From an uncultured Clostridia bacterium (GTDB lineage Bacteria; Acidobacteriota; Aminicenantia; UBA2199), in assembly GCA_964422395.1 (NCBI GenBank), contig CAYRAO010000001.1, forward strand, positions 73,530-137,529: a stretch of DNA of 64,000 nucleotides. The letters run 5' to 3'. The notes under the pieces are model-generated. The model was not told the DNA's origin. It did no database searches and worked only from the letters and a program-made list of their open reading frames with translations. A program made the translations under genes and the position numbers. Shown here one piece after another: positions 8,531 through 28,413 of this stretch (position 1 is its first letter; every line of letters begins with the position of its first letter).

Positions 8531-9838
8531 TTAGCAGAGGGACAGATTCTTATGAACCATTGACAATATTCCCTGTACAGGAAGACCGTATGAACATGAA
8601 CTTTCACAGTAACCTTCACATTCCGTACACAATCCCGCATCCTTTCCATTCAGTTCCAAATACTTTTTCATAGCATACTTTTCTCTGTTATGAGCATCAT
8701 AATAGTGGTTATATCTCATAATATCATTAATTTTTAATCCTGACGGACAGGACGATTCACAATCATTACATCCATGTCTGCAATACAATCTCCCCGGTCC
8801 CTCTTTGTACCGTAACAGAGTTTTACTTTCCGTCAATGTAAGTTTTGTTCCCGAAATACCGATAAACTCATCTGCAAGATCAAAATTCTGCATCGTACAC
8901 ACAACCGAACTTACCCCTTTGTTTCCAAGTACATACCTCACGGCTCCGTTTCTAATCTTTCTCGGATTATTTAAATTATATTTCTTAATAAATTTTTCCG
9001 CTTCATCGGCTTTTTTCTTAAATCTTCCAATACCTTTTCTATAGAGTGGATGAACTTTTTTCCCTTCTTTTTCAAGTTTTTTAATCCTATCTCTGATCAC
9101 ATAATACTTCCCCACCGGATTTACTTTCATAAGTGTAACTCCGATATTTTCCTTAACACAATTTTTTATAACCTCTGCACCCAAATCTTCCTGAATAAAA
9201 TTATAAGCCATAAGAAAAATATCAAAACGTCCGTCTTTCACCGCTTCATTTAATATTGCAGCCATCGGAATTTTGGGAGCTACAAACCAGTTTGAACCGT
9301 GATTTGATACTCCGACATATTTAAGTTTCCCCTCTTTTTTCATCTGATCCATTGCAGAATGGAATCCAGGAGTTTTCAACATCTCAATATTTTCAGCACT
9401 ATGGATCATCATGCAATCAATATAATTTGTGCCCAATTCTTTTAAACATTTGTTGAATCTTTTAATGAAACCGGCTTCACTTCTATCCTTTTTAATCTCA
9501 AGTTTTGAAGTGATAAATATTTTCTTTCTATCAAAGCTTTTTATTGCCTCCCCTATAACCGGTTGATTTTTATAACTTTCAGCTGTATCAATATAATTCA
9601 CTCCTGCATTAATTGCTTTTCTTACAACCTGGGCATTATGAGAAATACCCAAACTGATATCGGATATTTTAAATCCGGTTCTCCCGAGAACTCTGAAATT
9701 TTTAATTTCCGGTTCAATACCATTTTGGTCTTTATCCTCTTTCTCTTTTGAAAATAAATTTCTATCTACAATAGTACCGCCAATTATACCTAACGTGGAA
9801 TTTCTAATAAAATTTCTTCTGCCGATCATCTTTTTCAT
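8531..9838 (-). CDS. Aldo/keto reductase fused to a C-terminal 4Fe-4S cluster-binding domain, Tat-secreted
   Basis: Twin-arginine signal MKKMIGRRNFIRNSTLGIIGG. AKR-like core. Two Cys clusters (CRHGCNDCESSCP ... CTECEGYCESSC). The start was set at the ATG with a GGAG RBS. Confidence 0.7.
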   Translation of the reverse strand: MKKMIGRRNFIRNSTLGIIGGTIVDRNLFSKEKEDKDQNGIEPEIKNFRVLGRTGFKISDISLGISHNAQVVRKAINAGVNYIDTAESYKNQPVIGEAIKSFDRKKIFITSKLEIKKDRSEAGFIKRFNKCLKELGTNYIDCMMIHSAENIEMLKTPGFHSAMDQMKKEGKLKYVGVSNHGSNWFVAPKIPMAAILNEAVKDGRFDIFLMAYNFIQEDLGAEVIKNCVKENIGVTLMKVNPVGKYYVIRDRIKKLEKEGKKVHPLYRKGIGRFKKKADEAEKFIKKYNLNNPRKIRNGAVRYVLGNKGVSSVVCTMQNFDLADEFIGISGTKLTLTESKTLLRYKEGPGRLYCRHGCNDCESSCPSGLKINDIMRYNHYYDAHNREKYAMKKYLELNGKDAGLCTECEGYCESSCSYGLPVQGILSMVHKNLSLC

Positions 9839-16234: not shown

Positions 16235-17647
16235 ATGGGAGTTAAAATGAAAAAAATTATATCAACACTATTTATCGGAATAATTATCGGTGCGGTTGTT
16301 TTATTCTTCATCAATAAAAAATGGCCGTTAAACGGAAGTAATGATCTAAAGAATGAGATCATATCTGATCAAACAAGTACAAATTCAAACAATTTCGAAT
16401 CGGTAACATCCAAACTTGATTCGGGAGGAGATCTTTTCTTTTATTTGAATACCAAGAAAATCATTTCGGCAATTAGGAAATCCTTCGATGTATTGAACGA
16501 ATCTCTTATTCATCCTTCAGAAAAAAAAGGGGAGAAAAGAAGAGAAGTTAATAAATTGTTTTCCTTCGTAAATTCTCTTTTAAATGACAGTGGATTAATG
16601 GATATTGCAGGAATCGGAATCAGTGCAAAAGAATTTGAAGAAAGCTTGACAAGAACAAAATTCGTGATCGAACACAAGCAGGGGAAAGGAGATAAGCTTA
16701 TTTGGAACTTTTGCATCAGGGAATCAGATAATCTTGATTCGATAGACCTGCTCCCTAAAGAAACGGCATTTGCTTCATTTTCCGATTTTAATTATTTTCA
16801 TTTATGGAATTGGATTAAAAGACAAGCGGAAAAATCAGAAGACGAGAAAATCAGACTTGGTATCGGTTCGGTTGAAAAAGACTTGAGAAATGCAGGGGTT
16901 GATCTTCCTACTTTATTGAAATCCATTAACGGTGATGTAGGAATCATTATTACTATTGACAAAGGAAACATGAAAAAAATTTCCGGTAAAAATAATAATA
17001 TTGAGTTCCCCGATCCCGCTTTTGCCTTAATAATAAAAACCGGCAATGAATCTATTTTCAAATTAATAGCTTCTAAGATCCCGAATTCCGAAATCAATGA
17101 AACCAAAGAGAGAAAAAGTATATCAATAAAAGCACCTAAAATGCCATTCACATTTTCACCTATGATAATTCAGAGCAAGAATCTGCTTATTCTCGCTTCT
17201 ACACCTGATATTGCAGAAAAGATTCTAAACAATAATATCGACGCGGGAATTTTAAGAACAGATGAATTTATCAAACTTTCAAGAGGAATCTCTTTATCCG
17301 GAAACGGATTTACATTCATGAGTTCCTCTATTATGAAAGAAATAATGAAAATTCAGAAGAACTTTAATACCTCTAAATATAATTCAAATAAAAAAGGTAT
17401 GGAGATTTTAGAAAAACTCGGATTAAATTTTAATAATCTTTCAATGTTTAGAGTTTTTGAAAAAACTAAAACCGGATATACAATCACATCAAATTCAACC
17501 ATAAGATCCGAATTAATGTTGATGATGCCCGTAATAGCACTTGGAGGAATTGTATCGGCAATTGTAATTCCTCAAGTAATCAGGGAAAAACAAAGAAAGA
17601 TCAACCGAGAAGAACAATCACGGAACCGATTATTCCGAGGGTTGTAG
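16235..17647 (+). CDS. Hypothetical membrane-anchored protein (TM at both termini)
   Basis: GGGAG RBS. N-terminal TM IISTLFIGIIIGAVVLFF and C-terminal TM MPVIALGGIVSAIVIP. No catalytic motif recognised. Confidence 0.45.
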   Translation: MGVKMKKIISTLFIGIIIGAVVLFFINKKWPLNGSNDLKNEIISDQTSTNSNNFESVTSKLDSGGDLFFYLNTKKIISAIRKSFDVLNESLIHPSEKKGEKRREVNKLFSFVNSLLNDSGLMDIAGIGISAKEFEESLTRTKFVIEHKQGKGDKLIWNFCIRESDNLDSIDLLPKETAFASFSDFNYFHLWNWIKRQAEKSEDEKIRLGIGSVEKDLRNAGVDLPTLLKSINGDVGIIITIDKGNMKKISGKNNNIEFPDPAFALIIKTGNESIFKLIASKIPNSEINETKERKSISIKAPKMPFTFSPMIIQSKNLLILASTPDIAEKILNNNIDAGILRTDEFIKLSRGISLSGNGFTFMSSSIMKEIMKIQKNFNTSKYNSNKKGMEILEKLGLNFNNLSMFRVFEKTKTGYTITSNSTIRSELMLMMPVIALGGIVSAIVIPQVIREKQRKINREEQSRNRLFRGL

Positions 17648-18545
17648 CAACCGCTTTTCGTAATGTGAATTTTTCCTTAAGAAAAATAGTTGCAAATACT
17701 ATTATGAAGATGGTATTGGTCTGATTTAGAATTGCCGCCGAATTCATATCCGTAAGTTTGAATGCACTTATCCACATTATCATGGCAATAAAACTTCCTA
17801 ATATGGTAGCAGGAAGAGCGTATTTATAATTTGCTTTTTTTATTAGTGAAGCAAGTATCTCTTTTTTATCTTTATTCAAATAAAGCAAGATGGATAGTGC
17901 GATAGTACCGGAGATAAGTCTTACTTCGGTAACCCAAAGTATGGGAGCTTTGTCAATAACAGGTTTCATCACTACTACACTGATACCCATGGCAATCATA
18001 GCCCCTGTTCCATATAAAAATCCGAAAAAGATATCTTTTCGACTCCGCTCTTTCTCTTTCAATCTGAATGTAGCAACTAAAATTGCGGAAATCACGAGAA
18101 TACCTCCCGAAAATTCTTTAAAAGTGATTTCATTCACCAAAAATATATAAGAAAGGAAAATAATTATAGGGCTGTACAGACAATCCACAATTGCCGTAAG
18201 ACCAGCACCGAGCATATTTAAAGACTTGAAGAACAGCGTATCCGATATCGCAACTCCGAGAATACCGCTTAGTACAAGAACTAACAAATCTTCGATCGTA
18301 ACATTAGACGGGATTAGTTCTGTTCCGACAATCAACAATACAGGAATTAACAGAAGCATTGAAATAAAGCTTTTATAAAAATTTAATCCGATCGGCTTCA
18401 GACCTTCACCCGACTTCTTGAAAAGGATTACCGCAAGTGCCCACAACAAAGCACATAGAAACGCAAAAATCTTTCCCATAATATCAGCTGAAACCGTCCC
18501 TTCAATTAACACCATGCGACTTAGTATAACATAGTTCAATTGCAA
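17601..18545 (-). CDS. EamA/DMT superfamily transporter
   Basis: About 10 TM segments and two EamA-like halves. The start may be the internal MGKIF at 18479. The 3' end overlaps the convergent gene by 47 nt. Confidence 0.7.
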   Translation of the reverse strand: MQLNYVILSRMVLIEGTVSADIMGKIFAFLCALLWALAVILFKKSGEGLKPIGLNFYKSFISMLLLIPVLLIVGTELIPSNVTIEDLLVLVLSGILGVAISDTLFFKSLNMLGAGLTAIVDCLYSPIIIFLSYIFLVNEITFKEFSGGILVISAILVATFRLKEKERSRKDIFFGFLYGTGAMIAMGISVVVMKPVIDKAPILWVTEVRLISGTIALSILLYLNKDKKEILASLIKKANYKYALPATILGSFIAMIMWISAFKLTDMNSAAILNQTNTIFIIVFATIFLKEKFTLRKAVATTLGIIGSVIVLLG

Positions 18546-18608
18546 GTCTTAAAAAAACAGGAATTGATTTTTTAAATGCAAAATAATAAAATTCAGATGG
18601 GAGTATAA

Positions 18609-21410
18609 GTGAAAATATCGATACCGATTTCTATATTGTTACTTTGTTCATTCTTAAGTCCTCAGTTCTTCGATACAAATCAATATCCTCCCGGAATTGA
18701 TTGGAGATACATTGACTCTGAATTTTTCAGGATCGTTTTTCCTGCTGAAAATACGGAAGCAGGATTGAGAGTAGCAAATACGCTCGACTATATTTATCCG
18801 AAAATATCCGCCAGAAAAATCGGCAATGGAAAAATAACACTGCTTCTTCCCAATTGCGGGATTTTCTCAAACGGTTATATAAAGTTAGCCCCGCAAAAAG
18901 GAGAATTTTTTTCCACTCCTCCCCAATCAGGATTTATAGGTAACACCGAATGGTATAGTGCTCTTTCCATTCATGAAGGTAAACACATTGATCAATTCAA
19001 CAGAACGAATTCGGGATTTACCAAACTCGGAGGTATCATATTCGGTGATCTCGGGAGATTATTCCTTTCGTTCTTCTCAATTCCCGCATGGTTTTGGGAA
19101 GGCGAAGCGGTTCACGCGGAAACCGTTTTTTCCTCCGGTGGAAGAGGAAGACTCCCGTCTTTTTCCATTGGAATGAGATCGATCCTCCTATCAGGGAAAA
19201 AATATAAGTACGAAAAATCTTACCTCTCTTCCTATAAAGATTATATTCCGAACATTTACCGTCTCGGATATTTTTTGATAACCTATTTAAAGAATAATCT
19301 TTCAAGCAACGGAATGGAAAATATATTAAAACACTCTTCCGCATACTCTTTTTATCCGTTAATATTTTCCTCCGCACTAAAAAAAGAGAGCGGTTTGTCG
19401 GTTCATACACTATATAAAAAAACCATGGATGAACTGAAAAAAAGATGGGAAAATATTGACAAGGGGATTAAGTTAACAAACTTTAAGGAATTCAATCTAA
19501 AACCAAAGAACGGATGGACACTATTTACTTCTCCGATAGAGTTAACAAACGGCAGTATTATTTCCCAAAAATACGGATTATCAGTACCGTTAAGTCTTGT
19601 AATCACCTCTCCGGAAGGAAAAGAGAAAAAGATAACTCAATTCTCAACCATCAGTCACATTAATAATATGCTGTCCGTAAGAAATAATTGTGTAGTATGG
19701 AGTGAACCTGTTAAAGATATTAGATGGGGAAAGAGAAGCTATGCCGAAATAGTTAAGCTTAATATCATTTCGGGGGAGAAAAAGAGGATAACCAAAAAAA
19801 CCAGATATTTCTCTCCTGCACTATCTCACGACGGTAAATTAATTGCAACCGTACATTTTTCAAAAGAGAGAAAATCATCTCTTGTAATCCTGCGATCTTC
19901 GGATGGGAAAAAAATAAAAGAATATGACTCTCCCGACAATTCATTTCTAATAACCCCGTCATGGGATGATAGAAGTGAAAATATAGTAATTATCCGTGTT
20001 AAAAACGGTGAAAGATCAATTACATTATTTAATTTGAAAAAAGGGAACTTTACCGATATTTTAACCTTATCTAAAAATATGTACTCAACCCCTATCTTTT
20101 TTAACGATTATATTTTATACGGTTCACCGTACTCCGGAATAGACAATATATACGCCGTTAATATATCATCAGGGGAACAATATAGAATTACTTCCAGCAG
20201 ATTCGGAGCATTCTTCCCTTCAATCTCAATTGATAGGAAAAAGATCATATATTCGGATTACAACGTTAATGGAACGGATATTGTTTCTGCACCGATTAAT
20301 ATTAGTTCATGGGAACCGCTTAGTGAAGTTGTTGTAAACAGAACGGAATTTTTTAAGAAAAGCAACTATGTTGAGCGGAAGGATTTAACAATTCCGAAAA
20401 ATATCCCCCAAAAGAAGTATAAAATAAAGAAATATAATCATTTTAAAGATATTATTAACTTTCACAGCAGAGTAATCATTCCCGATAGGATCGAACCGGC
20501 TTTTGAGATGTATTCAAATAATCTGATGAATACAATATTTATAACCGGAGGATACCTTTTTAATACAAACGAAAAAAGGGGTAAATTCTACGCCAATATG
20601 ATTTATTCTGGATTGTTTCCGGTAATAAAAATCGGGTTTAGCAGAGGGGGGAGAAATTCCGGCAATCCTCATAATCTTAAATGGGATGAAACAAAAGGAT
20701 TCTTATCCGTTCTTCTACCATTTAACTTTTCAAAAGGGGTATACAATAGGAAAATGAGTCTTGAATCAGAGATATCGACCACAAAGATTTCAGGTAATGA
20801 AAATAAGAACGGTATCAAAATAAAAAACGGTTCAATTGATTCCCTGAAATACAGATTTTCATTCTCAAGCTACAAACATTATGCAAAAAGGGATATAACA
20901 CCTAATAAAGGGATATTTTTATTCGCTGAGTTTGCTCATACACCATGGAATACATTATATAGAGGACAAAAATTATTCATCAAAGGCTCTATGTACTTTC
21001 CGGGAATTTTTAGGCACAACAGCTTGAGATTGAGCATTTCTTATGAAAAACAGGTCCCTAAAAACTTTATTTTTTCAAGTAATATAAACTTTTCCAGAGG
21101 ATATAATTTTAAGTACAGCAACAATCTCATGTTTGCAAATATTGATTATTCATTTCCAATCCTCTATCCGGATCTTGCTATCGGAGATCTGCTGTATTTG
21201 AAAAGGATAAGAGGAACAATTTTTCTTGATCTCGGAAAAGGATACAACAACAACAGTACAATTTATTACAATTCAACCGGAGTGGAGATAAAGGGAGATA
21301 TAAATCTATTTTCGCTACCTTTAAATTTAGAAGCGGGAATTCGTATATCACACAGATTTCAAGATAACTCTTTTATATTTGAACCGATTTTTCTCGGAAT
21401 AAATTTCTGA
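18609..21410 (+). CDS. Large outer-membrane protein with an N-terminal HExxH-containing region, a TolB/PD40-like beta-propeller, and a C-terminal beta-barrel ending in Phe
   Basis: GTG start with a GGGAG RBS. Signal peptide. HEGKH motif. PD40-like repeats (SPALSHDGKLIATV, ITPSWDDRSENIVII). Alternating hydrophobic C-terminus ...FIFEPIFLGINF. Confidence 0.5.
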   Translation: MKISIPISILLLCSFLSPQFFDTNQYPPGIDWRYIDSEFFRIVFPAENTEAGLRVANTLDYIYPKISARKIGNGKITLLLPNCGIFSNGYIKLAPQKGEFFSTPPQSGFIGNTEWYSALSIHEGKHIDQFNRTNSGFTKLGGIIFGDLGRLFLSFFSIPAWFWEGEAVHAETVFSSGGRGRLPSFSIGMRSILLSGKKYKYEKSYLSSYKDYIPNIYRLGYFLITYLKNNLSSNGMENILKHSSAYSFYPLIFSSALKKESGLSVHTLYKKTMDELKKRWENIDKGIKLTNFKEFNLKPKNGWTLFTSPIELTNGSIISQKYGLSVPLSLVITSPEGKEKKITQFSTISHINNMLSVRNNCVVWSEPVKDIRWGKRSYAEIVKLNIISGEKKRITKKTRYFSPALSHDGKLIATVHFSKERKSSLVILRSSDGKKIKEYDSPDNSFLITPSWDDRSENIVIIRVKNGERSITLFNLKKGNFTDILTLSKNMYSTPIFFNDYILYGSPYSGIDNIYAVNISSGEQYRITSSRFGAFFPSISIDRKKIIYSDYNVNGTDIVSAPINISSWEPLSEVVVNRTEFFKKSNYVERKDLTIPKNIPQKKYKIKKYNHFKDIINFHSRVIIPDRIEPAFEMYSNNLMNTIFITGGYLFNTNEKRGKFYANMIYSGLFPVIKIGFSRGGRNSGNPHNLKWDETKGFLSVLLPFNFSKGVYNRKMSLESEISTTKISGNENKNGIKIKNGSIDSLKYRFSFSSYKHYAKRDITPNKGIFLFAEFAHTPWNTLYRGQKLFIKGSMYFPGIFRHNSLRLSISYEKQVPKNFIFSSNINFSRGYNFKYSNNLMFANIDYSFPILYPDLAIGDLLYLKRIRGTIFLDLGKGYNNNSTIYYNSTGVEIKGDINLFSLPLNLEAGIRISHRFQDNSFIFEPIFLGINF

Positions 21411-21423
21411 TCTGAAAAATTTA

Positions 21424-22821
21424 TTATCGGATTTTCTTGATAACCTGTCCGTCCTTTGTATCTTTAATTTCAAAACCCTTTTCTCTGATTATGTCTCTAT
21501 ATTTATCGGATAATCCATAATCTTTCTCCGCTCTCGCCGTTTTTCTTTTTTCAACAAGGGCTAAAATGTCCTCGGGAATCATAACTTCCTCTTCTTCGAG
21601 AAGATTCAGACCCAATACTTGATCAAAATATTTTGTAATCTCAAGTTTTTCAATAGATCCTATATTCTTATCCTTTATCATATCATTCAGCAATGCAAGC
21701 ACCTGAGGGATATTTAAATCATCATTAATACTCTTTTTAAAAGACTTAAGATAAAATTCTGTTCGATTCCCTTCATTATAACTTGTTCTACTTTTCTTTA
21801 TCTCAGCAATTCGACTCTTCAAGTTTTTATATCCCCGACTTGCACCTTCCATAGCCTCCCAACTGAACATAAGTTGTTTCCTATAATGGGCTCCAAGACA
21901 TAAGAATCTGAATGATAGAGGGTTATATCCTTTATCAATTAAAAATCGGAGTGTTAAAAAATCACCCGAACTCTTAGACATTTTCCCCTTATCCATGACA
22001 AGGAATTCTCCATGTAGCCAATATCCGACCCATGGTTTTTTCCCGAATGCAGCTTCCGCCTGAGCTATTTCATTCGTATGATGGACAGGAATATGGTCAA
22101 TCCCGCCGGTATGAATATCAAATTGTTCTCCAAGATATTTTGAACTCATTGCACTACACTCAATGTGCCACCCCGGATATCCGACACCCCACGGGCTATT
22201 CCACTTCATATCCTGATCTCCAAATTTTGACTTTGTAAACCATAAAACAAAATCGGTATCATTCTTCTTATTAACGTCTATTTCGGTTCTTACTCCATGT
22301 TGTAGTTCATCCAGTCGTAACCGAGCCAGTTTACCGTAATCCTCTATTTTCGCAGTATCAAGATAGAGATTGCCTCCTGAAAAATAAGCAAACCCGTTCT
22401 TTTCTATCTTCTTCTCCATGTTTATCATTTCATCAATATGATCTGTAGCTCTACAAATAATCTCCGGTTTTTGAATATTAAGCAATGATATATCACTAAA
22501 AAATGATTTTTCATAATATTTTGCAATATCCCATACACTTTTATTTTCTCTCTTTGCTCCAGCCAACATCTTATCTTCACCCTCATCCGCATCGCTGGTT
22601 AAATGACCCACATCGGTAATATTCATTACATGTTTGAGTTTGAAATTGTTTAACAAAATCACGCGTCTTAAGAGATCGTTAAAAACATATGTCCTAAGAT
22701 TACCGATATGAGCATAATTATAAACGGTGGGTCCGCAGGAATACATTCCAACTTCCCCGGATTCTATCGGGACAAACTCCTCTTTACTACGTGTCAGCGT
22801 ATTATAAAATCTCAATTTCAT
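21424..22821 (-). CDS. cysS: Cysteine--tRNA ligase
   Basis: HIGH motif (AHIGN) and KMSKS motif. Typical length of 465 aa. Confidence 0.95.
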
Positions 22822-22954
22822 TTAGTTAGCCTTAACAAAACTATTTTGGGAATGATTATAAAGGAATATGTCACTCATTTCAATTAACAATTATATTATG
22901 TAAAAAGTGAGATATCTTTGGTTGATCTTCTATATATTGAATGATGCAATTTTC

Positions 22955-22988
22955 ACGAAAACGAATATTTTTAACGAAAACGTATTGT
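22955..22988 (+). promoter_or_regulatory. Tandem direct repeat ACGAAAACG(A/T)AT upstream of the lipoprotein array; possible regulator binding site
   Basis: cACGAAAACGAATATTTTtaACGAAAACGTATTGT lies about 45 nt upstream of the 23031 start. Confidence 0.2.
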
Positions 22989-23030
22989 AAACAAAATTGC
23001 AATCTGATATAAAATATAAAAGGAGGAAGT

Positions 23031-23378
23031 ATGAGAAAAAAATTAACGATTTTATTGGTAGTGACATTATTTATTACAATGATGTTTAGCACGGGATGCA
23101 AAAAAAAGTTTGATATTCAGGGTATTTGGACAGTAAGTTATACATGGTCAAATTCAGGAACCGGAACCACTACAATCACATTCACAGGCAGCAAAACTTC
23201 CGGCACATTCAGTTCTCAGAAATACACGGGAACATACACTGTTAACGACAAGAGTGTTACTTGGAGATATACATCAGGTACAACATACACAGGTACATCA
23301 ACAGATGATAACAACATGAGTGGTACAATGATAGGCCATAAAGGTGGTACCGGCACTTGGACTGCTGTAAGAAAATAG
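23031..23378 (+). CDS. Small Thr/Gly-rich lipoprotein, tandem paralog 1 of 3
   Basis: Lipobox MMFSTGC. GGAGG RBS. Conserved blocks YTVNDKSVTW, NMSGTM and GGTGTWTAVRK are shared with copy 2. Confidence 0.6.
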   Translation: MRKKLTILLVVTLFITMMFSTGCKKKFDIQGIWTVSYTWSNSGTGTTTITFTGSKTSGTFSSQKYTGTYTVNDKSVTWRYTSGTTYTGTSTDDNNMSGTMIGHKGGTGTWTAVRK

Positions 23379-23412
23379 CAGATTAATTAAGTTAGTTAAA
23401 AAAGGAGGAAAG

Positions 23413-23766
23413 ATGAGAAAGAAATTAACGATTTTATTGGTAGTGACATTATTTATTACAATGATGTTTAGCACGGGATGTAAAAAGAAATTTGATATTC
23501 AGGGTACCTGGAATTTAAGTTTTATCTGGTCAAATGGTACCCATGGAATCTTAGCACTCACGTTCACCGGAGGTAAAGAATCCGGATCATTTTCACATAA
23601 AAACATAACATTGGGAACATATACTGTTAACGACAAGAGTGTTACCTGGAAGTATTCATTGGTAAACACTGTGTATACAGGGGCATCAACCGGAGATAAT
23701 AACATGAGTGGTACAATGGTATCATTTAACGGCGGAACAGGCACTTGGACTGCTGTAAGAAAATAA
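23413..23766 (+). CDS. Small Thr/Gly-rich lipoprotein, tandem paralog 2 of 3
   Basis: The first about 90 nt (including the RBS) and several internal blocks are nucleotide-identical to copy 1; the middle is divergent. Confidence 0.6.
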   Translation: MRKKLTILLVVTLFITMMFSTGCKKKFDIQGTWNLSFIWSNGTHGILALTFTGGKESGSFSHKNITLGTYTVNDKSVTWKYSLVNTVYTGASTGDNNMSGTMVSFNGGTGTWTAVRK

Positions 23767-23795
23767 CATTTTAGTTAAATATATCCATAAAAAAG

Positions 23796-23824
23796 GGGGG
23801 ATAGAGATATCCTCCTTTTTTTTA
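23796..23824. terminator. Rho-independent terminator (bidirectional-looking: A-run, GC stem, T-run)
   Basis: AAAAAA-GGGGGGATA-gaga-TATCCTCC-TTTTTTTT, immediately after lipoprotein copy 2. Confidence 0.55.
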
Positions 23825-24000
23825 ATATTAACTCTTAATTTTTTAAAACTTCTTTTCATAAGAAATGCAATTTAATAAATTTATTTTTGTAATGGTTTAG
23901 CTTAATACCTGATCTAATCGGAAATAAAAAAAATTTTTTTCCAAAAAATTATTGAAAAATACTTCTAATTTTGATAGAAAGTGTTTAAGGGGGAACCAAA

Positions 24001-24366
24001 ATGAAGAAGAGATTTATAGTTTTATCGGTAGTAGTACTATTTGCTACAATGATGTTTAGTCCTGGATGTAAGAAAAAAGAGGAGGGTGTCACAGCCAAGT
24101 TTGACATAACCGGAACTTGGACTCTCGTTTTTAAATGGACTAATCAAGCTGCAAAAACCGGTACAATAGTTTTCACAGGAAGTGCAACTGCAGGTTCGTT
24201 TGTATTCAACAACTATAAAAAAGGTACTTATACCGTAAACGGGAAAAACGTTTCATGGCAATATACAGTTGGAGCAAAATATACCGGAACATCTACCGGA
24301 GATAAAGCCATGAGCGGAATAATGAAAAATGGCGGTTTGAGCGGCACTTGGACTGCTACAAGATAG
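24001..24366 (+). CDS. Small lipoprotein, divergent paralog 3 of 3
   Basis: Lipobox MMFSPGC. It shares the GTWT..., YTVNGKNVSW, MSGIM and GTWTATR pattern with copies 1 and 2. Confidence 0.55.
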   Translation: MKKRFIVLSVVVLFATMMFSPGCKKKEEGVTAKFDITGTWTLVFKWTNQAAKTGTIVFTGSATAGSFVFNNYKKGTYTVNGKNVSWQYTVGAKYTGTSTGDKAMSGIMKNGGLSGTWTATR

Positions 24367-24388
24367 TTGAAGAATAAAAAAAACATAA

Positions 24389-24413
24389 CACTGGAGGGCT
24401 ACTCCCTCCGGTG
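24389..24413. terminator. Stable GC-rich hairpin between convergent genes (likely terminator, mainly for minus-strand folP)
   Basis: CACTGGAGGG-ctact-CCCTCCGGTG: a 10-bp stem with one G·U wobble. It is preceded by an A8 run, which gives a U-tract on the minus strand. Confidence 0.45.
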
Positions 24414-24493
24414 TACATGCTACATTAATTAGATTTTCACTTACACTTATGTGTAAAAATGAAATAAGTTTTAGTGATTACTTTTCGAAAAAG

Positions 24494-25324
24494 CTATAAT
24501 AAATTTTTTAAAACTTTTAGTGATTTGACACAATTTTCCACATTGTGAACTCTAAGTATTGAGGCACCGTTAATTACAGATATCAGGTTCGCAGTAATTG
24601 TTTCGCTTTCCCTTTTATACGGATGTTTTTCACCGCTTATTTCACCAAGAAATGATTTTCTGGATATCCCCATCATGATCGGAAGATTAAAATTCTTAAA
24701 ACTTTTCAAATCTCGAATAATATTAATATTATCTATTAATCTTTTTCCGAAACCGATTCCAGGATCAATGATTATTTTTTTTCTATCGATCCCTTTTGAT
24801 ACGGCAAAAGCTATCCTATCTGTAAAATAATTTTTTATCTCTAAAACCACATCGGAATAGAACGGGTCTTTCTGCATATCAGAAGGAGAACCCTTAATAT
24901 GCATAAGAATTACCGGAACATTTAGTGCGGCAATAATTTTCGCCATATTATCCGAAAAAGATAATGCTGAGATATCATTGATGATATCGGCACCGGCTTC
25001 ATTTACCGCCAATTCAGCCACACGATCTTTATAAGTGTCAATTGACACAAGGATATTAAATTCCTTCTTAATCTTTTCTATCACCGGAAGAACTCTGTCA
25101 ATTTCGGAATTAACATCAACTTTAGTAGCTCCCGGTCGCGTACTTTCCCCCCCGACATCAATAATTGAAGCTCCTGAATTAATCATCTTTTCCGCTTGAA
25201 AAATTGCCGAATCAAATTTGACAAATTTTCCACCGTCAGAGAATGAATCGGGAGTCATATTAAGAATGCCCATTACTATAGGTTCTTCAAACTCCTTTGT
25301 ATTTTTACGAAGGTATAACTTCAT
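24494..25324 (-). CDS. folP: Dihydropteroate synthase
   Basis: Pterin-binding domain motifs (NMTPDSFSDGG, GGESTRPGA). Confidence 0.9.
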   Translation of the reverse strand: MKLYLRKNTKEFEEPIVMGILNMTPDSFSDGGKFVKFDSAIFQAEKMINSGASIIDVGGESTRPGATKVDVNSEIDRVLPVIEKIKKEFNILVSIDTYKDRVAELAVNEAGADIINDISALSFSDNMAKIIAALNVPVILMHIKGSPSDMQKDPFYSDVVLEIKNYFTDRIAFAVSKGIDRKKIIIDPGIGFGKRLIDNINIIRDLKSFKNFNLPIMMGISRKSFLGEISGEKHPYKRESETITANLISVINGASILRVHNVENCVKSLKVLKNLL

Positions 25325-26076
25325 TTGATACTAATTTTTTTTACGCTACTTACATTAATCCAACCTGCTGTTTCGGAAGAGGCAGTAACTTGAATCCAAT
25401 CTCTATTTGTATCGATAATGTGAACCGTTACTCCGGGACTAATTTCAAATAGGACCGTATTATTCATACCCGGACCGCTTCTTAACTTTGCCTCACTATT
25501 AACTATTACAGCATAATTCTCATCGTAAAAACCATTAACACGATGGACATGATAAAAGAACAATATGAAGAGAAAACAGAATGATAGCAATATACCGTAG
25601 ATATTTATTTTATTCCGACCCACCCTTACTAATTTAAATATAAAAAAACAAAATATTAATAATACGATCAATAATAAAATTGATAGAAAATTTATAGTAA
25701 ATACTGACTCTATCCTTTTTAATAAAACCGATAAAAAACCTGGATCAGACAATCTGATGTTATTGTTTAACATCCCTTCAACAATTTGTAGATTCTGTTT
25801 AATTGAGTCATCAAAAGGTTTTAGTTTTTTAGCTTTAAGATAATAAATTTTTGATTGTACAAAATCACCTAATTTAAAATATGTATTCCCTAAGTTGTAG
25901 TATACCTTCCAATTACTAATATTCTTTGAAATTTTAAGATATTGTTCCAAAGCTTTATTATATTCACTCTTTTCATAATGAGAATTACCTTTTTCAAACT
26001 CCGAGATAGGATCAAATGCACTTAAAAAAAACATGGAAATAGACGTTAAAACAATCGCAAAATATAACTTTTTCAT
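25321..26076 (-). CDS. BatE-like protein (TPR repeats, TM, C-terminal bacterial SH3 domain)
   Basis: TPR region, a hydrophobic segment, and an SH3b-like C-terminus. It is the last gene of the Bat-type cluster. Confidence 0.5.
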   Translation of the reverse strand: MKKLYFAIVLTSISMFFLSAFDPISEFEKGNSHYEKSEYNKALEQYLKISKNISNWKVYYNLGNTYFKLGDFVQSKIYYLKAKKLKPFDDSIKQNLQIVEGMLNNNIRLSDPGFLSVLLKRIESVFTINFLSILLLIVLLIFCFFIFKLVRVGRNKINIYGILLSFCFLFILFFYHVHRVNGFYDENYAVIVNSEAKLRSGPGMNNTVLFEISPGVTVHIIDTNRDWIQVTASSETAGWINVSSVKKISIK

Positions 26077-27818
26077 TTTAATTTCGAATCTATCCTTTTT
26101 ATTATTCTTTTCAACTCGGAGATCTCCCTTTCCAATTGTAATGGAGTTTTAATAGTTGATCCTGAAAATCTTGATTGCTCAGACTCCTGTCTAATCCTTA
26201 AAAACTCTTTAGTATCAACTTTACTTACTCCTGATGAATAAAAAATATTCTCAATCTTAACAACATTTATTTCAGATCTGCTAATTCCTGTTTTTCTTTC
26301 TATATACTCTTCAATAATTTGAAATATTTCAGCAAACCCTTTTACATTATCCAAACGATTTAGTAAATTCTGAACAACTCGCTTTCTTATTATTTTTTCA
26401 TTCCCGAGTATAAACCGCTTTACAAAATATTCATAAATCAGAAACGCTACAATGCCAATAATAATCAGAAACAGGAACACCCTGAAAATCACAGTCTGAT
26501 AAATAAATATTTTTTGATCATAAATTGTTCCGGTCTTTATAAAATTAATATCAGAACCCTTTTTTAATATAGTTCCAATTCTATTGTTTACATTGGAGTC
26601 GGATATCTCCTTAACTCCCGATACAAATACTTCTATTTTCTTACTCTCTGTAGTTTTTGTTTTTGATTCAACCGGATCAAAATATTCAAATTTAAGTGCA
26701 GGTAAAGTAACTGTTCCCTTTTCATTAAATGAAACCGGAACTTCCGCCGATACATATCCTTTTATTCCGTTATCCGTATAATAGATCTTTCTTGATATTT
26801 TTGAAGGAAAAATCTTAAATCGATCACTGCTTTCAAATTCAGGAATCTTTAAGGTTTTTATATTTCCTGAACCTCTCACTTTTATATTGACCGATAAAAG
26901 TTCGTTAATATCAATCGAGTTATTTTCAACATCCACTGTAATTTTAAAACGTCCGATAGGAAGATTCCCGTTTGAATTATCCAAAACATCAATTATTATA
27001 GGATTTGTAACTCTTGTAATTTTTTCCGGTGTTGAGAAGAAAGAAAAAGAACCGTCCCGCATAAATAATTCAAATTTGAGAGAAGGGATTTTCAGTTTCC
27101 CCGATTTTGTAGGAAACAATGCAGCTTTTCTAATCTCGAATACAACATATTTCTTGCCATCAATAATTTCTTGCCTGCCATCTATTGATTTTTTTACCGG
27201 ATACCATTCCTGCCAGAATCCGGGAAAAGACTGACCGGAAACAAGATTAACCGATTCAATTCTGTTTGTTGAATATAGCAAAACTTTATAAATTAATTGC
27301 TCTCCTTGTCGAACTCTCCTTTTATTTATCCGTGCTACAGTTTTTATGTTAATTTCACGAGGAGCAGACCGAAACGGTTCATAAGACGGGAAATCCGAAT
27401 CAAAAATAGATCTCCTTTTTCTCTTTGGAGCAACTTTCTTTACACTTCCCTTAACTGCAACTATTTTAATTGATTCCGTTTTATAAACATGATTATTGTG
27501 AACATATTTGAGAGGTGGAATTATGAGAATACCTTCCTTTAGCGGTGCAAGATAGTAAACGAAATTAACATAAGTTGAAGAAACACCGTTAATAAATTTA
27601 AACTCTGAACTTCTTGAAGTTTGAACTATTCTGAAATCCGCAATTGATTCAACATCAGGATGTGATGGATTCTGAATCCCTTTAAAAGTTACCGTATATA
27701 TCAAATAATCATTTAAACCTATTGTCTCGGCATCAACAGAAGCACTAAACTCAATTTCATCTCCAATTAGAGGGAAAACGAAAACAAATATTAGTAAAAA
27801 TCTAAATAGCTTGATCAA
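26073..27818 (-). CDS. BatD-like protein
   Basis: 581 aa with an N-terminal signal and a C-terminal TM. It sits between the BatC-like and BatE-like genes, and its overall architecture matches BatD. Confidence 0.5.
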   Translation of the reverse strand: MIKLFRFLLIFVFVFPLIGDEIEFSASVDAETIGLNDYLIYTVTFKGIQNPSHPDVESIADFRIVQTSRSSEFKFINGVSSTYVNFVYYLAPLKEGILIIPPLKYVHNNHVYKTESIKIVAVKGSVKKVAPKRKRRSIFDSDFPSYEPFRSAPREINIKTVARINKRRVRQGEQLIYKVLLYSTNRIESVNLVSGQSFPGFWQEWYPVKKSIDGRQEIIDGKKYVVFEIRKAALFPTKSGKLKIPSLKFELFMRDGSFSFFSTPEKITRVTNPIIIDVLDNSNGNLPIGRFKITVDVENNSIDINELLSVNIKVRGSGNIKTLKIPEFESSDRFKIFPSKISRKIYYTDNGIKGYVSAEVPVSFNEKGTVTLPALKFEYFDPVESKTKTTESKKIEVFVSGVKEISDSNVNNRIGTILKKGSDINFIKTGTIYDQKIFIYQTVIFRVFLFLIIIGIVAFLIYEYFVKRFILGNEKIIRKRVVQNLLNRLDNVKGFAEIFQIIEEYIERKTGISRSEINVVKIENIFYSSGVSKVDTKEFLRIRQESEQSRFSGSTIKTPLQLEREISELKRIIKRIDSKLK

Positions 27819-27822
27819 TAGT

Positions 27823-28413
27823 CTACCAATCCTTTGTTTTTCTTGAATTTGAGGCTTTCCTCTTCACTTTCTTCATCTGATCCTTGTCCTTTTGACTCAG
27901 ATAATTCATAATATTCTTGTATTTTTTATTTTTATCCTGCCTCTTTTTATCTTTTTTCTTCTCTTTATCATCTTTTTTTTTATTCTTATTCTTTATCTTT
28001 TTAAGAGTGAGTTCAAAATTTTTTTTAGTGTTAACATCATCAGGGTCTGACATTAAACTCTTTTTATAATTTTTCAAAGCCTCCTTATATTTATTCAACC
28101 TAAAGAAAGTATTACCCAAGTTGTAAAAAAACTTAGAATTATCAATCCCTGCTTTTTCGGGATTAATCTTTGAAAACTCTTCAAGTGCTTCCTGATATTT
28201 GTTCAGATTATAAAGGGCTGAAGCGGTATTGTTTTTCAACTCCGAAGATTCGGGATTTAATCCCTTCGCCGATAAAAATTTTTTTAATGCTTTGTTAAAA
28301 AGCTTTTCTTCGTACGCTTTTATTCCATCACTATTTTTTCTTGCAACAGGCTCAAACCAATGCCAGTTTACAAACAAAATCGCCAATAAAATTATAATCG
28401 GTTTCTTTTCCAT
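27823..28413 (-). CDS. BatC-like TPR protein with a highly basic Lys/Asp-rich tail
   Basis: Signal or TM segment, TPR repeats, and a KKKDDKEKKKDKKRQDKNKK tail. Confidence 0.5.
   Translation of the reverse strand: MEKKPIIILLAILFVNWHWFEPVARKNSDGIKAYEEKLFNKALKKFLSAKGLNPESSELKNNTASALYNLNKYQEALEEFSKINPEKAGIDNSKFFYNLGNTFFRLNKYKEALKNYKKSLMSDPDDVNTKKNFELTLKKIKNKNKKKDDKEKKKDKKRQDKNKKYKNIMNYLSQKDKDQMKKVKRKASNSRKTKDW

Follow-up and report, generated by a model that had tools for sequence, protein, structure and literature searches.

Copy-number variation and mosaic genes in a tandem array of predicted mini-barrel lipoproteins from an uncultured Aminicenantes bacterium

Introduction

Between the genes cysS and folP, on a contig of an uncultured Aminicenantes bacterium, three open reading frames (ORFs) follow each other on the plus strand, and each of them encodes a small predicted lipoprotein. 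The stretch of DNA that we analysed (64,000 nt; contig CAYRAO010000001.1, positions 73,530–137,529) is called the window below, and the three genes are its copies 1, 2 and 3 (W1, W2 and W3). A preliminary description of the window noted that copies 1 and 2 alternate between blocks of nucleotide identity and strongly divergent segments, a pattern that it ascribed to segmental gene conversion or to diversifying selection on a surface-exposed protein, as in antigenic or phase-variable families. What kind of protein does this array encode, how did its copies become so alike at their ends and so different in their cores, and what could such an array be used for?

Our results point to a strain-variable gene array of lipid-anchored mini-barrels that belong to an undescribed family, in which the distal end of the barrel would form a variable binding surface and the copies would be reshuffled by unequal crossing-over and short-tract gene conversion. 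We assign this reading as a whole a probability of roughly 0.6. It builds on the observed gene structure, fold model, polarity of the variation, mosaic pattern, copy-number variation and synteny, which are presented in turn below.

Predicted lipoproteins with a minimal barrel

The ORFs lie exactly where the preliminary description had placed three genes of 115–121 amino acids (aa), and threonine, glycine and serine together make up 39–52% of the mature proteins, in line with the compositional bias that it reported. The leader is MRKKLTILLVVTLFITMMFSTGC in copies 1 and 2 and MKKRFIVLSVVVLFATMMFSPGC in copy 3. We read the lipobox from sequence in the window copies, and applied a relaxed regular expression to their relatives. 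The N-terminus of copies 1 and 2, MRKKLTILLVVTLFITMMFSTG-C23, consists of MRKK, LTILLVVTLFITMMF and STG-C23, which is a canonical lipobox. These two copies thus have the charged n-region, the hydrophobic h-region and the lipobox within ~35 residues that are typical of signal peptidase II substrates. Cys23 is invariant in all lipoprotein-type members of the family (60/60). Lipidation and cellular location of the array products are predictions from these features.

The mature domain of copy 3 was modelled with AlphaFold2 at high confidence (predicted local distance difference test score, pLDDT, 95.5; predicted template modelling score, pTM, 0.83). The model has eight consecutive strands in a meander, and represents a minimal eight-stranded up-and-down barrel of ~90 residues that begins 3–10 residues after the predicted acylated cysteine. 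It has the strand arrangement of the calycin superfamily, as well as the calycin-type G-x-W in strand 1 and a basic residue where the last strand ends. According to DSSP, the model contains no helix. Similar structures are avidin, calycins, Cap15 and barrels designed de novo. The Foldseek results are consistent with this, and also list, at weaker scores, the barrels of NHBA and TbpB, two neisserial surface lipoproteins. The lipocalin-like beta-barrel that the preliminary description had put forward as a question is therefore what structure prediction and structural matching return.

Several residues of the barrel are strongly conserved. G38, W40 and R121 are invariant in 21/21 close members, and G38 and W40 are found in all 60 lipoprotein-type members. 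G38-x-W40, the terminal R121 and several glycines in the strands give the impression of structural, not catalytic, residues. The only PDB sequences reached by the family profile were those of designed barrels (E 0.016), and a PDB sequence search with a transmembrane-anchored relative returned only noise.

Variation is concentrated at one end of the barrel

To locate the variation, the per-column entropy of 21 distinct Aminicenantes sequences was mapped onto the model of copy 3. Mean entropy was high in the odd-numbered loops (2.41 in loop 1, 2.89 in loop 3, 1.75 in loop 5 and 2.90 in loop 7) compared to the even-numbered loops (1.51 in loop 2, 0.90 in loop 4 and 0.72 in loop 6; one-sided Mann–Whitney test, P 0.0005). 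It was only 0.44 in the signal peptide and 0.28 in the N-terminal FDITG stretch, and the C-K-K-K-F-D-I-T-G junction is conserved. Most insertions and deletions are located in loops 1, 3 and 7 and a few rare ones in other parts, and one third of the 21 sequences carry a 17-residue insertion. Since a meander barrel has its odd-numbered loops at one end and its termini at the other, the variable end lies far from the lipid anchor. Conserved are the strand cores and the anchor-proximal end, which is formed by the N- and C-termini and loops 2, 4 and 6.

This polarity suggests how the proteins may work. The type-II (lipobox) signal peptide would provide the predicted lipid anchor, to which a barrel with a constant proximal and a hypervariable distal end would be attached. 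The distal end would then act as a binding surface, and each paralog might have its own target. The idea of binding derives from the arrangement, which is that of lipocalins, anticalins and avidins. By this analogy, the array products are most likely anchored binding modules with a specificity that differs from paralog to paralog.

Copy number and cassettes in related genomes

The close relatives of the array are found in metagenome-assembled genomes (MAGs) of Candidatus Aminicenantes, among them one labelled Acidobacteriota and one contig labelled Clostridia. The gene order cysS–array–folP is present in at least ten Aminicenantes contigs. Several of these contigs contain a single copy at this site, usually of a type with a long loop 1. 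Two copies are found in L016, at least three in L015 (where the contig ends inside the array), three in the window and four in L001. The search for variation in copy number and cassettes that the preliminary description had suggested thus yielded a range of 1 to 4 copies at a single site.

L001 is the genome nearest to the window, and its four copies are called A1 to A4 here. Its left flank, with cysS and a gene of 933 aa, is 96.6% identical to that of the window, at a synonymous divergence (dS) of 0.10. For its right flank, with folP and a TPR-SH3 gene, these values are 77–79% and ~1.0. When positions 16590–27924 of the window are compared with L001, the jump in divergence is located at the stop codon of copy 3 (24366). 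The array therefore marks the edge of a large tract of recombination or transfer between lineages.

Within the array, the cassettes do not follow their position. Copy 3 matches A4 at 93% of nucleotides and 86% of amino acids, but the best partner of copy 1 is A3 (86% of nucleotides), even though copy 1 stands in the position of A1. Copy 2 shares at most 76% of its nucleotides with any copy of L001, and its core has no close ortholog there. The proportion of synonymous differences (pS) between cassettes is 0.41–0.64, far above the dS of 0.10 in the left flank. The promoter, spacer and terminator modules are shared combinatorially. For instance, the module of ~110 nt with the promoter and ribosome-binding site (RBS) is nearly identical upstream of copy 1 and upstream of A1 and A3. 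The spacer between copies 1 and 2 is orthologous to the A1–A2 spacer except for a short (~10-nt) indel, the terminator type of copy 2 is kept after both A2 and A3, and the sequence beyond the terminator of copy 2 matches that beyond the terminator of A3. Unequal crossing-over may have duplicated or deleted whole promoter–gene–terminator units.

Alternatively, the array might be an assembly artefact in which coexisting strain variants were collapsed or chimerised. The source is indeed a metagenome assembly, and the Logan assembly of SRR8439236 breaks inside copy 2, just past a 59-nt repeat. We consider an artefact very improbable, however, because a 223.6-kb contig and a 50.8-kb ENA contig also have the same order of three genes, with a single synonymous difference (23616), and the array is partly recovered on a 31.5-kb Logan contig. 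Moreover, sister genomes hold comparable arrays with intact promoters, spacers and terminators.

A close relative of one cassette comes from another metagenome, where a 59.6-kb contig of the Joint Genome Institute (JGI) encodes a protein (P0162) that is identical to copy 2 except for Met6 instead of Thr6 (codon 23428–23430).

Gene conversion and purifying selection

Copies 1 and 2 are identical at 75.9% of nucleotides and 73% of amino acids, and copy 3 is more distant from both (63–65% of nucleotides), as the preliminary description had noted. Perfect runs of 59, 16, 23, 18 and 26 nt interrupt the otherwise 76%-identical DNA of copies 1 and 2. The longest run covers nt 10–68 of the coding sequence (CDS), starting at 23040 and 23422, and internal blocks of 23, 18 and 26 nt lie at 23238/23623, 23313/23701 and 23352/23740. 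Each of the three internal blocks quoted in the preliminary description is present exactly one time in each of these two copies. Its claim of identity over the RBS and about 95 nt was too generous: synonymous mismatches at CDS nt 9, 69, 75 and 78, plus two mismatches just 5′ of the ATG, leave a longest run of 59 nt. In a permutation test of the Sawyer type, which shuffled the polymorphic sites of copy 1 versus copy 2, the longest identical run had a P of 0.0008 and the top two runs a P of 0.0001 with seven paralogs as reference. With a closer set of six sequences, these values were 0.039 and 0.0037.

Synonymous sites distinguish the ends of the genes from their cores. Copies 1 and 2 differ at 4/16 synonymous sites in the first 30 codons versus 29/53 in the core (P 0.048). 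For the 5′ block and core of A2 and A3 in L001 these numbers are 1/15 versus 28/54 (P 0.002), and pooled over the pairs W1–W2, A2–A3 and E1–E2 the contrast has P = 9e-5. At the other end of the gene, the last eight codons of copies 1 and 3 show 0/6 synonymous differences versus 37/53 in the core (P 0.0017). Several states are specific to one genome. The codon of Gly108 is GGC in all three copies of the window and GGT in A1 to A4, and Thr6 (ACG) occurs only in copies 1 and 2, where every other genome has ATG. Over the first 75 nt, paralogs of the same genome differ by 1–8 positions and copies of unrelated genomes by 5–21. The 5′ ends and the 3′ block group by genome of origin. The cores do not, and instead form lineages that are shared across genomes.

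Copy 1 is a mosaic that resembles copy 2 at nt 1–60 and ~205–235, and A3 at nt ~95–205. This is apparent from ~50 informative sites at nt 95–205, where copy 1 matches A3, while it sides with copy 2 against A3 at nt 17–57 and again at nt ~205–235. In the latter segment, copies 1 and 2 have N-D-K(AAG)-S in common, and all other copies have G-K(AAA)-N-like codons.

Could these blocks arise without any conversion? They might simply be the codons of constrained residues in an AT-rich, strongly codon-biased genome, with uniform divergence elsewhere. The blocks do coincide with structural elements, namely the leader, strands 4 and 5 with loop 4, the stretch from loop 6 to strand 7, and strand 8. In addition, the paralogs of L006 and L016 (C1–C2 and D1–D2) have leaders that are identical in protein at a pS of 0.51–0.52, so that selection at the protein level alone suffices to keep a leader constant. 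Some block codons (ACT GTT; AAC ATG AGT GGT ACA ATG) occur in A2 or A3 as well. Uniform divergence, however, conflicts with the lower synonymous divergence of the 5′ and 3′ blocks compared to the cores, with the genome-specific codon of Gly108, and with the clustering by genome of 5′ ends but not of cores. Furthermore, Thr6 and N-D-K(AAG)-S are derived states of copies 1 and 2 that are absent from A3, the nearest relative of copy 1. We therefore regard an origin without conversion as unlikely. What stands of this explanation is that the blocks sit on the scaffold, where purifying selection fixes their positions. What does not stand is that their synonymous sites diverge like those of the cores. 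Segmental gene conversion, one of the two processes that the preliminary description named, is supported by the sequence comparisons as an additional layer on top of this purifying selection. The direction of the conversion events is inferred.

Another possible explanation is that the genes duplicated recently within each genome and that positive selection then changed the mature part very fast, which would make the identical ends mere leftovers. A pair of paralogs in L006 has a core pS of 0.18, a ratio of nonsynonymous to synonymous proportions (pN/pS) near 1 over the whole core, and a pN/pS of 1.43 in the distal loops. Hence, this barrel family does include genes that duplicated recently and changed their loops rapidly. 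For copies 1 and 2, however, the core pS of 0.54 is five times the dS of the left flank, which excludes that their shared ends stem from a recent duplication. Moreover, the core of copy 1 is closer to A3 (160/195) than to copy 2 (126/195), yet the 5′ ends of copies 1 and 2 carry window-specific states. The split between copies 1 and 2 therefore predates the split between the genomes, and the duplication scenario has little to recommend it for this pair.

Short-tract gene conversion may thus act in addition to unequal crossing-over. Both processes would use the same homology tracts: a 5′ block with the RBS and leader, a central TYTVNxK block, and a 3′ GTWTA block. With the conserved blocks as homology tracts, the leaders and 3′ ends would evolve in concert within each genome, and the cores would persist as old lineages that are reshuffled.

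Other mechanisms were considered as well. An RNA element as explanation for the conserved 5′ block was rejected, as this block gave no Rfam match at gathering score and folded no better than its shuffles (z −0.2 and −0.5). The copies are not targets of a diversity-generating retroelement (DGR) either, given that their differences involve all four bases and indels; no extra repeat resembling a DGR template was found at 22700–24600 (a reverse transcriptase was not looked for in the remainder of the window). The phase variation suggested in the preliminary description finds no basis in the locus, where we found neither silent cassettes nor inverted repeats that surround the promoter. Such inverted repeats as were found are weak and AT-rich, and the sole tract (A8, in copy 1) does not vary among three assemblies. 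Antigenic variation, which it also mentioned, would be implausible as a response to an immune system in an Aminicenantes lineage from the environment.

The leader of copy 3 behaves differently from the others. Compared to A4 (8001–8069 in L001), it has 10 nonsynonymous and 2 synonymous changes at 24001–24069 (pN/pS ~1.3). This contrasts with all other leaders of the family, which are the most conserved part of the protein.

An undescribed protein family

Scans of the three window proteins against Pfam, NCBIfam and PADLOC returned noise alone, without a match to any family. The Pfam search suggested in the preliminary description was thus run and gave no match at E ≤ 1. A word-indexed search found six relatives. 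When a profile built from eight mature domains was run against 1.84 billion representative proteins, it reached 595 clusters (at 50% identity) at E ≤ 1e-3 and 120 clusters at E ≤ 1e-10, almost all of them metagenomic. Pfam assigned 2/60 relatives to Lipocalin_4 (E ~0.007), the source records call the members 'hypothetical protein' in every case, and a literature search on Aminicenantes lipoproteins returned nothing relevant. The family is undescribed, but of known structural and evolutionary kinds.

Three architectures can be distinguished. The first consists of lipoproteins of 120–135 aa in which the barrel begins a few residues past the cysteine. In the second, which comprises proteins of ~200 aa, the barrel is preceded by two hydrophobic segments. 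The third includes a few large extracytoplasmic proteins in which the barrel stands beside M6 or C25 peptidase, FG-GAP, Big_2 or Big_7 domains. At other loci, the members are solitary and flanked by unrelated housekeeping genes.

P0064, P0148, P0074 and P0023 carry the barrel as an accessory module, in positions that include the far C-terminal end of a C25 (gingipain-type) peptidase. In the other cases, it follows an M6 metallopeptidase domain or beta-propeller and Big_7 domains, or precedes FG-GAP repeats. In the sister subfamily of ~200 aa, a hydrophobic segment at the N-terminus is followed by an acidic linker, another hydrophobic segment, Lys residues and finally the barrel. This subfamily did not match PADLOC. 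Examples are L004 210–2742 (JGI 3300078603), P0004–P0011 and many others. L004 has three tandem copies with nearly identical first ~60 residues and different barrels, which is again a pattern of constant front and variable barrel. In L002, the slot after a single barrel gene (8555–8914) is occupied by an unrelated 119-aa ORF that does not belong to the family. Its product has a hydrophobic segment at the N-terminus, and the rest is charged and looks helical.

The fusions to M6 or C25 peptidases in some of the larger proteins raise another possibility, namely that the array encodes housekeeping envelope lipoproteins, or inhibitors like the small-barrel proteins MliC/PliC and Inh/LupI, which act on lysozymes and proteases, with loops that vary by neutral drift. 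Conservation of the cysS–folP site across the clade and the single copy in many genomes would agree with such a role. We consider it unlikely nonetheless. Pfam gave no match to MliC or other inhibitors (window proteins at E ≤ 1; 60 relatives at E ≤ 0.01), and it would be atypical for a housekeeping gene to vary between 1 and 4 copies and to have its cassettes replaced between genomes with a 96.6%-identical left flank. Furthermore, the variation is not spread over the surface of the barrel, but strongly concentrated at one of its ends.

Comparison with known systems

The calycin barrels, which include lipocalins, anticalins, avidin/streptavidin and Lipocalin_4-like lipoproteins, have the eight-strand meander, the G-x-W start and the Arg after the last strand in common with the array barrels. 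In lipocalins, the barrel end that bears loops 1, 3, 5 and 7 is the ligand entrance, and this end is randomised in anticalins. The array barrels likewise have their variable loops 1, 3, 5 and 7 all at one end. They differ from lipocalins in that they are much smaller (~90 residues) and that the model lacks the N-terminal 3-10 helix and the C-terminal helix. Hence, with a model of copy 3 that has no helix by DSSP and without a lipocalin match in Pfam, the window proteins fall outside the lipocalin family proper. Neither Pfam Avidin membership nor the biotin-contact residues of avidin and streptavidin were found in them.

Cap15 is an effector of the cyclic-oligonucleotide-based antiphage signalling system (CBASS), and combines transmembrane helices with a minimal beta-barrel. 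It is the best natural structural match (PDB 7n34), and shares with the ~200-aa relatives the combination of two hydrophobic segments and a C-terminal barrel. However, the array proteins have only 16% sequence identity to Cap15 and no PADLOC match, and there are no CBASS genes among the neighbours. In particular, the cGAS/DncV-like nucleotidyltransferase (CD-NTase) expected beside such an effector is absent from the neighbouring genes, which are cysS, folP and housekeeping genes. Moreover, the lipobox of the window proteins would place their barrel outside the cytoplasm, unlike that of Cap15. The closest structural parallels thus appear to be the avidin- and lipocalin-type barrels and the barrel of Cap15.

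The nearest PDB entries, both by structure and by profile, are designed barrels (6czg, 6czj, 6d0t and 8ah9), and regularly spaced glycines are present in the natural family too. De novo barrels (6czj, 6d0t, 8ah9) share the G-T-W start and the glycine-rich strand positions with the array barrels. This likeness stems from the idealised minimal barrel and does not indicate common ancestry.

The closest described evolutionary parallel is the lpl cluster of Staphylococcus aureus (Tsuru and Kobayashi, 2008; PMC2568036). It consists of tandem paralogous lipoprotein genes in which conserved nucleotide blocks within the ORFs are sites of recombination, parts of the ORFs have incongruent histories, spacers travel with the adjoining gene ends, and copy number and arrangement vary between strains (Tsuru and Kobayashi, 2008). 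Conserved intragenic blocks, incongruent segment histories, moving spacers and differences in copy number are all found in our array as well. Yet, the two systems involve unrelated families and folds, and the window proteins have no Pfam match to DUF576/Lpl. The conserved blocks lie in one central region in lpl, but at both gene ends and in a short central block in the array. Finally, the array occurs in an environmental uncultured lineage and not in a host-associated pathogen.

The Vsp/Vlp families of Mycoplasma and Borrelia are clustered paralogs with a conserved 5′ region and prolipoprotein signal peptide, and with divergent mature parts. The array resembles them in its clustered paralogs and in the joining of a conserved leader to a divergent mature part. 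It differs in that no variable homopolymer or repeat tract, invertible promoter or silent cassettes were found, and in that a host-immune rationale does not apply.

Anchored binding modules?

Several observations weigh against an array of anchored binders diversified by recombination. In so small a barrel, the core may be filled, which would leave no pocket. The ~200-aa relatives with two hydrophobic segments would have a cytoplasmic barrel, which clashes with a purely extracytoplasmic role of the domain. The neighbours of the family members include no conserved gene that indicates a pathway, and three independent assemblies of the window population show no variation in cassettes. The lipobox of copy 3, MMFSPG-C23, is atypical, with a Pro at position −2 that is outside the usual set, whereas its ortholog A4 has FSSGC. 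As to selection, pN/pS is 0.3–2.1 in distal-loop codons versus 0.13–0.41 elsewhere (0–0.14 in the leader, except for the comparison of copy 3 with A4), but the loop values are not significantly above 1 and come from small counts, so that relaxed constraint explains the loops equally well. For conversion, the 5′ synonymous contrast between copies 1 and 2 is marginal by itself (P 0.048), and AT-biased codon usage inflates chance identity at synonymous sites.

If the proteins are indeed anchored binders, the constant proximal and variable distal ends predict where any ligand or partner would bind. More tentatively, the array might be a natural counterpart of anticalins: a minimal barrel that serves as framework for anchored binders diversified by recombination, with the gene ends as homology handles and a leader kept constant by a dedicated sorting step. 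We consider this extension doubtful. If true, loop cassettes would be swapped between paralogs and between strains in free-living uncultured bacteria.

Our results do not overturn current understanding, as both the fold class and the evolutionary mode are known. They do provide a confident fold for a domain family of ~600 clusters that is lacking from Pfam and could now be curated. They also offer an example, from outside the pathogens, of a tandem lipoprotein array in which the gene ends evolve in concert and the cores are old and reshuffled. The closeness to de novo barrels may interest protein engineers, for whom the family could represent a very small, loop-tolerant natural binder framework.

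Layout of the locus

The features of the locus are listed in Table 1. All three copies have their own RBS and start codon. The spacer between copies 1 and 2 lacks a terminator, and therefore these copies form a bicistronic unit. Copy 3 is preceded by a spacer of 234 nt. In the hairpin between copy 3 and folP, the A8 on the 5′ side of the plus strand provides a U-tract for folP on the minus strand.

Table 1. Features of the array and its surroundings (positions in the window).
Feature	Position	Strand	Description
cysS	21424–22821	−	Left neighbour of the array
Promoter and RBS module of copy 1	22926–23030	+	Includes the direct repeat TTTTCACGAAAACGAAT / TTTTAACGAAAACGTAT at 22950–22985
−35/−10-like site	22988–23015	+	Upstream of copy 1
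Copy 1 (W1)	23031–23378	+	115 aa; lipoprotein leader (Cys23), then ~90-aa eight-stranded barrel
W1–W2 spacer	23379–23412	+	34 nt; own RBS AAAGGAGGAA; no terminator
Copy 2 (W2)	23413–23766	+	117 aa
Intrinsic terminator after copy 2	23789–23822	+	15-bp stem including A/U flanks, U8 tail; −17.8 kcal/mol, z −2.65
Copy 3 (W3)	24001–24366	+	121 aa; monocistronic; 7-residue linker (EEGVTA) after the lipobox; atypical lipobox FSPGC; ortholog A4
GC-rich hairpin	24384–24419		Between convergent W3 and folP; −19.8 kcal/mol, z −4.75
folP	24494–25324	−	Right neighbour, convergent with W3

The 933-aa protein of the left flank (18609–21410) looks secreted and adjoins cysS in all related Aminicenantes contigs. 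It has no confident Pfam domain, and its ortholog shows a faint match to Tricorn_N. The direct repeat TTTTCACGAAAACGAAT / TTTTAACGAAAACGTAT lies directly 5′ of the promoter-like site of copy 1, and could be an operator. In L001, the second unit of this repeat is present alone upstream of A1 and A3.

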